Below, one piece after another: positions 4,588 to 62,800 of a stretch of 64,000 bases of DNA. Source of the DNA: a virus (lineage: Duplodnaviria > Caudoviricetes). The position numbers and the translations under genes were made by a program. The notes under the pieces were generated by a model. That model was not told the origin of the DNA. It worked only from the letters and a program-made list of their open reading frames with translations, and made no database searches. Positions within the stretch are counted from its first letter, which is position 1. Every line of letters begins with the position of its first letter. The DNA lies in the IMG/VR virus record IMGVR_UViG_3300032227_000893, positions 3,482-67,481 of that record. One strand, written 5' to 3'.

Positions 4588-4656
4588 GTGACTGGAGTGT
4601 TGGCACACGCTAGGCTCATAGCCTAGAATTCCGGGTTCGATTCCCGGCAGTCCCCA
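4588..4656 (+). tRNA. non-canonical tRNA, anticodon CAT (Met or Ile2), with a 4-nt D-loop
   Basis: Acceptor GTGACTG/CAGTCCC (one mismatch), D-arm GTGT-TGGC-ACAC, anticodon arm CTAGG-CTCATAG-CCTAG, T-arm CCGGG-TTCGATT-CCCGG. Confidence 0.75.
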
Positions 4657-61331: not shown

Positions 61332-61501
61332 CTAACCTCTCCCCCGCCGCGCAGGACATCCAAGAATTGATGAATGCTTGGAACACCATTGTCACAAATG
61401 TTCGCGCACAATTTCCAAAAACAACCGAAGAAAACATTTATCAATTTTCTAAAAATGCTTTTTATCACTCATTGAGCTGGAACCACAATGACCGACTCTG
61501 A
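61328..61501 (+). CDS. 57-aa protein starting MTNLSPAAQ
   Basis: ATGA overlap; manually translated. Confidence 0.6.
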   Translation: MTNLSPAAQDIQELMNAWNTIVTNVRAQFPKTTEENIYQFSKNAFYHSLSWNHNDRL

Positions 61502-61874
61502 CGACCGTAAAAATCAAATCTGCACAAAATGCGGTGTTGGCAATTACCAAGAAACCAACATTTACGATGACTGGGACGGAGTGCTTCACTGCACCAACAA
61601 AGAGTGCAACCACGAAGTAAAAAGGTACAAGTGGAAAGACAACCCTCCGCCGAAACTTGAAAAAGTCAAGCTATCGGCCGCCGCACAGGCAGTTGCATCG
61701 GCTTACGACAACACGCCTGAGAAAGACACAGGTAACCACCGTTACCTCTGGCTTGCCGCCGCCCTTCGCTCTGCTGTAACCCAAGTAACTCCTGTATCAA
61801 CTAACGCCAGACAAATGAAAATTCGTGATGAATTCCTTGCCATCGCCGATGAACTTCAGGCTATTTCCATTTGA
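61488..61874 (+). CDS. zinc-ribbon + LSAAAQAV...IADEL module protein
   Basis: CTKCG...CTNKEC followed by the shared module. Confidence 0.7.
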   Translation: MTDSDDRKNQICTKCGVGNYQETNIYDDWDGVLHCTNKECNHEVKRYKWKDNPPPKLEKVKLSAAAQAVASAYDNTPEKDTGNHRYLWLAAALRSAVTQVTPVSTNARQMKIRDEFLAIADELQAISI

Positions 61875-61890
61875 AACTAAATTAGAAGCA

Positions 61891-61922
61891 AAAAAAGGGG
61901 GGCCTTCAGGGGCCCCTTTTTA
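61891..61922. terminator. bidirectional intrinsic terminator
   Basis: A6-GGGGCC-loop-GGCCCC-T5. Confidence 0.7.
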
Positions 61923-62040
61923 TTAGCTTGACGAGTTCCGAGAGGCTGAGTGCCTCACAAATCAGGCTTTTGCCATCCATACCATTGCACTATACAGCCA
62001 AGGCTCAATTGGCTTCGTATAAGGTCCGGCTAGTAATAGA

Positions 62041-62240
62041 CAAAAGAAAAGGGCCCTTACGGACCCTCGTCTTTATCACCCTCCGATTGCGCTGCTCCTC
62101 ACAAAGGGAAAGGAACCCAAACGAGCCAACCACAAAGCCCGGTCTATCCTTACGGAGAAGACATTCCTTTCACGCCGTCCATCCTCGCGGGCCCTACGTG
62201 GGGACGTAGAACGAAGCCGAAGCATCAGGACCGAGTGACT
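62041..62240 (-). ncRNA. candidate ~200-nt structured non-coding RNA
   Basis: Own extended -10, paired 5'/3' ends, GNRA tetraloops, terminal GGGTCC-GTAA-GGGCCC-TTTTCTTTT; G-U pairs favour the minus strand. Confidence 0.6.
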
Positions 62241-62245
62241 TGCAA

Positions 62246-62254
62246 ATCATACCA
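62246..62254 (-). promoter_or_regulatory. extended -10 promoter (TGGTATGAT) for the ncRNA
   Basis: Reverse complement of atcatacca. Confidence 0.6.
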
Positions 62255-62312
62255 CACCTCGCACGCCTCCACCCGTGCTAGGGCAAGGTTCGGTTAACCG
62301 TCTCTTAAATCG

Positions 62313-62321
62313 TGCTAGCGT
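62313..62321 (+). promoter_or_regulatory. extended -10 promoter (TGCTAGCGT) for rlpA
   Basis: TGnTAnnnT, divergent from the ncRNA promoter. Confidence 0.45.
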
Positions 62322-62375
62322 CAAGGAGCTGGTCAGGCGACTGTCAGCCCAAACTGACATTCTTCTTCTTTTCCT

Positions 62376-62741
62376 GTGATCAAAACATTATTCTCCGTTT
62401 GCTTTGCTGCCCTCACCTTCGTGCCAGTGGTCAGCGAAGCTGCTTCATCGCGTCAATGCGGCACATCCTCTTGGTATGGCATGGGAGACGGCTTCCATGG
62501 GCAACGAACTGCCAATGGGGAACGCTTCAGTGCTTATGCCATGACTGCTGCCCATCGCTACCTCCCGCTTGGTTCCACGGTGAAGGTGACCAACCCGGCC
62601 AATGGCAGGAAGGTGACAGTCAGGATCAATGACAGAGGCCCGTATTACGGCAGTCGCATCCTCGATCTGTCCTACGCAGCCTTCGCAAAATTAGCCAGTC
62701 CAGGCAGTGGCACAGCGCAAGTGTGCATTGCTCGCCTTTAG
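62376..62741 (+). CDS. rlpA: RlpA-like lytic transglycosylase (DPBB) with signal peptide
   Basis: SWYG..FHGQRTANGERF...TAAHR.LP.G..V.VTN...VRINDRGPY...ILDLS. Confidence 0.9.
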   Translation: MIKTLFSVCFAALTFVPVVSEAASSRQCGTSSWYGMGDGFHGQRTANGERFSAYAMTAAHRYLPLGSTVKVTNPANGRKVTVRINDRGPYYGSRILDLSYAAFAKLASPGSGTAQVCIARL

Positions 62742-62767
62742 GGCATGATGGCTTTGCAAAGTGCTGC

Positions 62768-62800
62768 AAGCGTCTTCTCGGCTGGGGAGGCGCTTTTTTT
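62768..62800 (+). terminator. intrinsic terminator after rlpA
   Basis: AAGCGTCTTCTC-GGCT-GGGGAGGCGCTT followed by T-run. Confidence 0.75.

Follow-up and report, generated by a model that had tools for sequence, protein, structure and literature searches.

Does the 500-nt gap that separates an orphan ORF (61488-61874) from rlpA in a cyanophage genome hold an RNA gene in its own right, and if so, how might its product act? The stretch of DNA that we analysed, hereafter the window (64,000 nucleotides), accounts for the greater part of an IMG/VR virus contig of 67.5 kb, whose genes include those for ribonucleotide reductase, large terminase, portal, a 2000-aa tape measure protein, tail protein J, a Sak-like annealing protein and a primase-helicase. 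This siphovirus gene content agrees with the phage origin that had been supposed from the letters alone. The only match of the window in the phage collection was rlpA of Synechococcus phage S-CBS4. The candidate gene lies on the minus strand, and the surrounding genes are all on the plus strand. The original prediction had placed here a multibranched RNA of ~200 nt on the minus strand, bounded by a promoter and a terminator and belonging to no recognised family.

Homologues and transcript boundaries

Loci were fetched via the neighbouring proteins and then searched with nhmmer, which recovered the element upstream of rlpA, with its orientation unchanged, in three further sequence types. The set was then extended by two scans for a sequence pattern and by a covariance model (R1). 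At least 104 distinct homologous sequences of 138-194 nt were obtained, from about 70 IMG/VR viral contigs, S-CBS4 and at least 68 metagenome contigs (68 of the 72 examined). The pattern used to collect most of these sequences included GGUYCU, CCGYRAGGRUGRAC and AUCGGA, so that their invariance is in part a matter of ascertainment; all three were already invariant in four homologues found without the pattern. The covariance model matched the window at 62074-62243 with 89.1 bits, and the S-CBS4 copy (64540-64731, minus strand), which lies between gp092 and gp093 in a gap without annotation, scored 95.7 bits. Exactly one copy was present in each of five complete genomes of 69-77 kb, and there is one in the window.

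Among 185,579 bacterial and archaeal genomes, one per species, the core pattern found no copy in a bacterial chromosome. The matches comprised five chance hits and one real copy, the latter on a 20.5 kb phage contig that is binned into a Rhodobiaceae MAG and identical to an IMG/VR contig. This contig, NYTN01000042.1 (L062), deposited in a 'Rhodobiaceae bacterium' MAG, has the same length and the same RNA match as the locus L100, and is probably mis-binned. The rlpA loci of other phage types (L022-L027) carry no such RNA upstream. Rfam 15 gave no family match for the window at gathering score, for the locus at E values up to 10 or for five relatives at E values up to 1, as expected for an RNA without a recognised family; the only matches at the locus and in the relatives were the terminator look-alikes STnc320 and ctRNA, which fell on the terminators. 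The element is not mentioned in the literature examined on S-CBS4 and on structured RNAs of cyanophages. A tRNA or tmRNA identity was rejected: the only ARAGORN or Rfam match in the window is a tRNA-Met gene (anticodon CAU) at 4588-4655 on the plus strand.

The coordinates of the features are presented in Table 1. The -10 box proposed earlier is present on the minus strand as TGGTATGAT, and in 102 of 103 distinct homologues a TGnTAnnnT motif ends 0-5 nt upstream of where the model begins. The position of this extended -10 element puts the start of transcription at the foot of helix P1, at a predicted ~62241-62239. A simple two-hexamer promoter scan did not report TGGTATGAT because a good -35 box is absent. 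At the other end, the hairpin GAGGGUCC-GUAA-GGGCCCUU with its U-run was found where it had been predicted, and the terminator scan reports this site at 62068-62049. A T-run 15-60 nt past the core, consistent with a terminator, occurs in 100 of 104 homologues, with a GC-rich hairpin at the T-run in the representative sequences that were read directly. The linker between P1 and the terminator is 8-14 nt long; in the fold described here, a strong intrinsic terminator comes about 10 nt past P1. These conserved signals bear out a minus-strand RNA of ~200 nt between a promoter and a terminator. A single small-share sequencing run, compared over 61700-62800, covered parts of rlpA and its leader only, which speaks neither for nor against expression of the RNA. 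No ORF is conserved across the RNA: the longest open stretch has a median of 38-49 aa whichever of the six frames is read, and just 3 of the 56 sequences have any frame that stays open from end to end. A hidden peptide was rejected, since the frames are not conserved, and the earlier statement that the RNA lacks a credible ORF holds across the 56 sequences.

Table 1. Coordinates of the RNA, its elements and neighbouring features in the window
Feature	Position	Strand	Description
Second candidate small RNA	61890-61994	minus	~93 nt; just downstream of the first RNA
Whole predicted transcript	62041-62241	minus	~200 nt; core, linker and terminator, between conserved promoter and terminator
Intrinsic terminator	62041-62068	minus	8-bp stem, GUAA loop, UUUUCUUUUG tail
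P1, 3' strand	62076-62081	minus	GGGUGA; partner of 62233-62238
Junction strand	62082-62088	minus	AAUCGGA; AUCGGA invariant, unpaired in the supported model
P3, 3' strand	62089-62092	minus	GCGC; partner of 62172-62175
P5	62097-62107	minus	CCUU-UGU-GAGG; short variable hairpin (helix 11)
P4 arm	62108-62171	minus	9-bp stem GAAAGGAAU/GUUCCUUUC closing the second three-way junction (P4a, P4b)
P4b	62122-62141	minus	Loop with UGUGG
P4a	62142-62162	minus	GUAA loop
P3, 5' strand	62172-62175	minus	GCGU; pairs with 62089-62092; hand-checked in the window
P2, 3' strand	62177-62180	minus	GGAC; pairing based on covariation
P2c	62183-62190	minus	Invariant CC-GNRA-GG hairpin (GCGA here), followed by AU and then GGAC
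P2b	62194-62209	minus	CUACGU-CCCC-ACGUAG (helix 4); dispensable, missing in the relative L083
P2a	62213-62226	minus	GAUGC-UUCG-GCUUC (helix 3); dispensable, missing in the relative L083
P2, 5' strand	62228-62231	minus	GUCC, inside invariant GGUYCU; pairs with 62177-62180
P1, 5' strand	62233-62238	minus	UCACUC; pairs with 62076-62081
Extended -10 element	62247-62255	minus	TGGTATGAT (TGn + TATGAT); predicted from sequence
rlpA	62376-62741	plus	Secreted DPBB "lytic transglycosylase" domain protein with signal peptide
rlpA terminator	62768-62795		Terminator of rlpA itself

Fold and covariation

The RNA is organised around a three-way junction formed by P1, a GUYC/GRAC helix (P2) and a long arm with a three-way junction of its own. 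The closing of the two ends upon each other, as first proposed, stood for UCACUC/GGGUGA, which constitutes P1, and was not supported for GGU/AUC; GUCC pairs with GGAC instead. P1 (helix 1) is 100% paired, and both sides change in 5 of its 6 pairs. P2 encloses the hairpins P2a, P2b and P2c, and its middle pair is C-G in 40, U-A in 14 and U.G in 2 of 56 sequences; in the set of 104, the numbers are 72, 28 and 3, and the remaining sequence varies at the adjacent U-A pair of P2 (U.G). The P2 pairing supplants an alternative suggested by RNAalifold and by the original prediction, in which a G-C pair is broken in 14 of the 56 sequences. Both sides change in all 6 pairs of P2b, in all 3 modelled pairs of P3 (helix 6) and in 18 of the 20 pairs of the P4 arm (helices 7-10). 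P5 is of variable length and poorly aligned, and 78.9% of its cells are paired.

The P2c loop is a GNRA tetraloop, and the junction strand contains AUCGGA, in all 104 distinct sequences, both of which the search pattern partly enforces; AUCGGA is also invariant in the nhmmer homologues found without the pattern. The RNA of the window has one UUCG and three GNRA loops, the latter number being that given in the original prediction, whose internal stem GAAAGGAAU/GUUCCUUUC around two hairpins (one of them UCC-GUAA-GGA) and whose CUACGU-CCCC-ACGUAG and CC-GCGA-GG hairpins were likewise recovered. A natural minimal version of 138 nt (L083:7800-7937, minus strand) is devoid of P2a and P2b and retains GGUCCU-CC-CCGUAAGGAUGGAC, which fits P2 and P2c as the core.

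The UCC of P2 has an alternative partner in the GGA of AUCGGA; this pairing is 100% compatible across the sequences, and the pairing with GGAC is the one supported by covariation. Since the two partners of this invariant UCC are mutually exclusive, a conformational switch between them is possible, judging from the sequences. A pseudoknot between the P4b loop and the P2c hairpin suits the window and L038 and was rejected, since inspection of the other clades contradicted it. The P4b stem of the major clade is AAGGAG ... CUCCU, and its loop contains AUG, a combination resembling a Shine-Dalgarno sequence and a start codon held in a hairpin. The P4b of the window has GUG where the major clade has AUG, and no conserved peptide follows this start codon-like site.

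The covariation found among homologues gives these helices their main support. In the alignment of 56 distinct homologues out of the 104 collected, the revised model comprises 52 pairs, 96.8% of the cells form standard pairs, and 42 of the 52 pairs show compensatory change on both sides, in line with a multibranched RNA, which here has two three-way junctions. None of 500 shuffles reached the observed values of pairing and covariation, and pairing fell to 39-50% in controls with slid partners. Folding of the single sequence gave z = -1.67 for the minus strand (8 of 200 shuffles equally good) and z = -0.88 for the other strand; the single-sequence fold is thus weakly better than chance, and the comparative evidence is decisive. 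The strand is fixed by pairs rich in U.G, as had been argued from the window alone: pair 10-280 is U.G in 46 sequences and pair 42-67 in 51, and these would be A.C mismatches on the opposite strand, which shows that the minus-strand call is right. The RNA is a family new to Rfam 15 with a well-defined structure. That it represents a real, independently terminated structured RNA gene we consider very probable.

Flanking genes and rival explanations

A key question is whether the RNA acts on its own or controls what lies beside it. The gene rlpA is immediately upstream and divergent in 85 of the 86 distinct loci with enough flanking sequence, and this back-to-back order persists where RlpA identity is down to 44%. 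The rlpA promoter is probably a conserved TTAAAT box at about 62316. Duplex energies between the RNA and the -70 to +30 region of rlpA, calculated with a crude method for 69 loci, were no better than those of shuffled sequences (mean z -0.1). A divergent antisense action on rlpA of the type I-like kind (IstR/tisB style) was rejected, as there is no excess of complementarity to the rlpA leader.

The downstream side is variable. Of 100 loci, 67 have a small MKLS-type ORF next to the RNA, 13 have a second small non-coding unit in that place and 20 have something else. The small ORF (50-85 aa) is on the same strand as the RNA and begins 25-85 nt past the terminator; the protein consensus is MKLS.EQEKERL..W...GE.YDPRNE.DYDTW..G.EP.PGD (e.g. 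L044:8060-8239, plus strand), with the YDPRNE segment lost in some proteins, and the member of the family in S-CBS4 is gp092 (L115:9354-9560, minus strand). The small ORF of the relatives has no match in Pfam, PHROG or Atlas, nuclease families included, and no homologue of it occurs anywhere in the window. A motif resembling CTATACAAnGCCAGCCG is present twice, as a direct repeat, between the RNA terminator and the small ORF (e.g. L069, L074, L044), and a degenerate CTATACAAnGCCAGCCG-like pair lies at ~62037-62000 in the window; this repeat region may be a promoter or an operator.

In the clade of the window, the place of the small ORF is taken by the second candidate small RNA, with a TATAGT box at 61994-61989, a terminator at 61916-61899 and the conserved start AAUGGUAUGGA(U/A)GGCAA. 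Its hairpin GAGGC-ACUCA-GCCUC is changed to GAAGC/GCUUC in 12 relatives, and indels break its frames, so it is non-coding. Two direct repeats of 15-17 nt with 80-82% identity are shared by 61948-61984 and 62233-62254, and the comparison suggests that the 5' part of the second RNA and the 5' end of the first, with its promoter, could derive from an old partial duplication. At 61885-61930, the window has a perfect hairpin with an A-run, a GC stem and a T-run, which would be a bidirectional terminator for both the plus-strand operon ending at 61874 and the minus-strand small RNAs.

Because a small same-strand ORF follows the terminator in most relatives, a cis-regulatory reading is a serious rival. 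According to it, the RNA is a leader, either a riboswitch or an attenuator controlled by protein or RNA, that sets terminator read-through into the downstream unit, which is the small MKLS-type ORF in most relatives and the second small RNA in the clade of the window. The order of elements is that of riboswitch leaders, with a promoter-proximal multi-stem junction bearing invariant nucleotides, an intrinsic terminator and, in 67 of 100 loci, a same-strand ORF; in L083 and L100, unrelated ORFs occupy the downstream position. The two exclusive pairings of UCC would also suit a leader, and by inspection the CCUUU side of every terminator is a potential partner for a purine-rich GGAG past the junction. 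However, a same-strand ORF is not a consistent neighbour, as it is absent in the clade of the window and differs in others, and an orphan downstream gene suggests no ligand. In L102, two terminators separate the RNA from the ORF, and a GATAAT box stands just ahead of the latter; most clades have a -10-like hexamer in the interval from terminator to ORF, a weak argument, as its occurrence is at chance level. The linker sets the fold apart from the terminator, and inspection revealed no conserved antiterminator covarying with P1 or with the terminator across the clades. The RNA is kept whatever lies downstream, including at loci that have lost the ORF or have another unit in its place, and this, together with the L102 layout, the linker and the lack of an antiterminator seen to covary with P1, favours a stand-alone, trans-acting RNA. 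We regard the leader as a rather doubtful explanation, and yet as the main rival.

Unlikely, in our estimation, is a new class of cyanophage sensor or catalytic RNA, with AUCGGA and the competing UCC pairings as the core of a ribozyme or as a switch triggered by a ligand or a protein. If true, such a switch would time the leftward transcription unit beside a secreted RlpA-type cell-wall enzyme during infection of picocyanobacteria.

Slightly lower still do we place a base-pairing small RNA, in which AUCGGA or the P4b loop would be a seed for host or phage mRNAs and the remaining fold a stabilising scaffold. An invariant single strand of six bases is of seed size, and about half of the distinct start regions have CCGAU within ~10 nt of the small-ORF start codon. 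Nevertheless, CCGAU is absent in the S-CBS4-like, L036-like and L070-like clades, and no covariation links its flanks to P1. On these grounds, we rejected a pairing of AUCGGA with the small-ORF start region, where CCGAU is common but not universal. The comparison with the rlpA leader also speaks against a seed, and the eight conserved helices are far above the usual structure of seed-type small RNAs.

A new self-cleaving ribozyme, or a multimer like some large phage-associated RNAs, is highly improbable: the three-way junction has invariant core bases, GNRA loops are conserved and the P4b loop usually has a self-complementary CAUG, but no known ribozyme model matched, a conserved cleavage-site context is not evident and CAUG is missing from the P4b loop of the window.

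The comparison with known systems yielded partial likenesses. A resemblance to 6S RNA (RF00013), suggested from the size and closed ends, extends to the ~200 nt, the closed 5' and 3' ends, the stand-alone gene and the intrinsic terminator. However, the cyanophage RNA is multibranched, with two three-way junctions, and does not have the large central bubble between long irregular helices; a 6S identity was rejected on this ground and because no 6S model matched (E up to 10 for the locus, up to 1 for five relatives). With the phi29-type pRNA (RF00044), it shares the phage origin, a similar size, a three-way junction and a promoter of its own, whereas the cyanophage, a siphovirus of 67-77 kb, has a portal and a large terminase of the ordinary kind, and complementary loops forming a conserved pair were not seen in the cyanophage RNA. 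The pRNA is, to our knowledge, confined to small phi29-like podoviruses. Given the siphovirus background and the absence of a match to any Rfam model, pRNA was rejected as well. GOLLD and ROOL are likewise associated with phages or prophages and have intricate conserved folds and an unknown biochemical function, but they are several-fold larger and show no sequence or model similarity. The order of promoter, RNA, terminator and ORF is also that of type III toxin-antitoxin systems (ToxI-ToxN), whereas the downstream ORF of the relatives is of 50-85 aa, without a family match and missing in the window; a type III antitoxin RNA was rejected, as there are no tandem repeats in 61850-62400 and no toxin-sized ORF downstream. 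A bacterial Y RNA (YrlA-like) was rejected too, as Rfam gave no match and the search of the phage genome for TROVE, which did find the positive controls, gave none either.

Proposed role and significance

The reading that we prefer is an independent RNA gene of a new family, confined to S-CBS4-like cyanosiphoviruses, whose product acts in trans by binding a protein; taken as a whole, this statement has in our judgement about an even chance of being correct. Host RNA polymerase would transcribe the gene from infection onwards, and a near-consensus extended -10 element for that polymerase would fit early expression. The original prediction had supposed an abundant early RNA that would be an RNAP decoy, an antitoxin mimic or a sponge for a defence protein. 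In our reading, the RNA would work in trans as a folded particle, in which the junction, the GNRA hairpin and the conserved P4b loop may together offer a host or phage protein a binding surface, the RNA serving as a scaffold or a decoy; its mode of action would not be through long antisense pairing. A wealth of covarying helices around invariant bases in junctions and loops is typical of RNAs that are recognised through their shape, and such an arrangement in the cyanophage RNA points to this mode of recognition, with a protein as the simplest partner.

We know of few structured non-coding phage RNAs with a known role, and of none described for cyanosiphoviruses. In folding richness and covariation support, the RNA is on a par with established riboswitch or ribozyme classes, and the family is ready for immediate entry in RNA databases. 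It is widespread in lake and estuary metagenomes (at least 120 matches in the scan). Its presence in the cultured phage-host pair of S-CBS4 and Synechococcus sp. CB0101 makes it directly testable, and the 138-nt version is useful for delimiting the functional core. Whatever the RNA binds or senses probably represents one of the steps by which picocyanobacteria, themselves major primary producers, are taken over.
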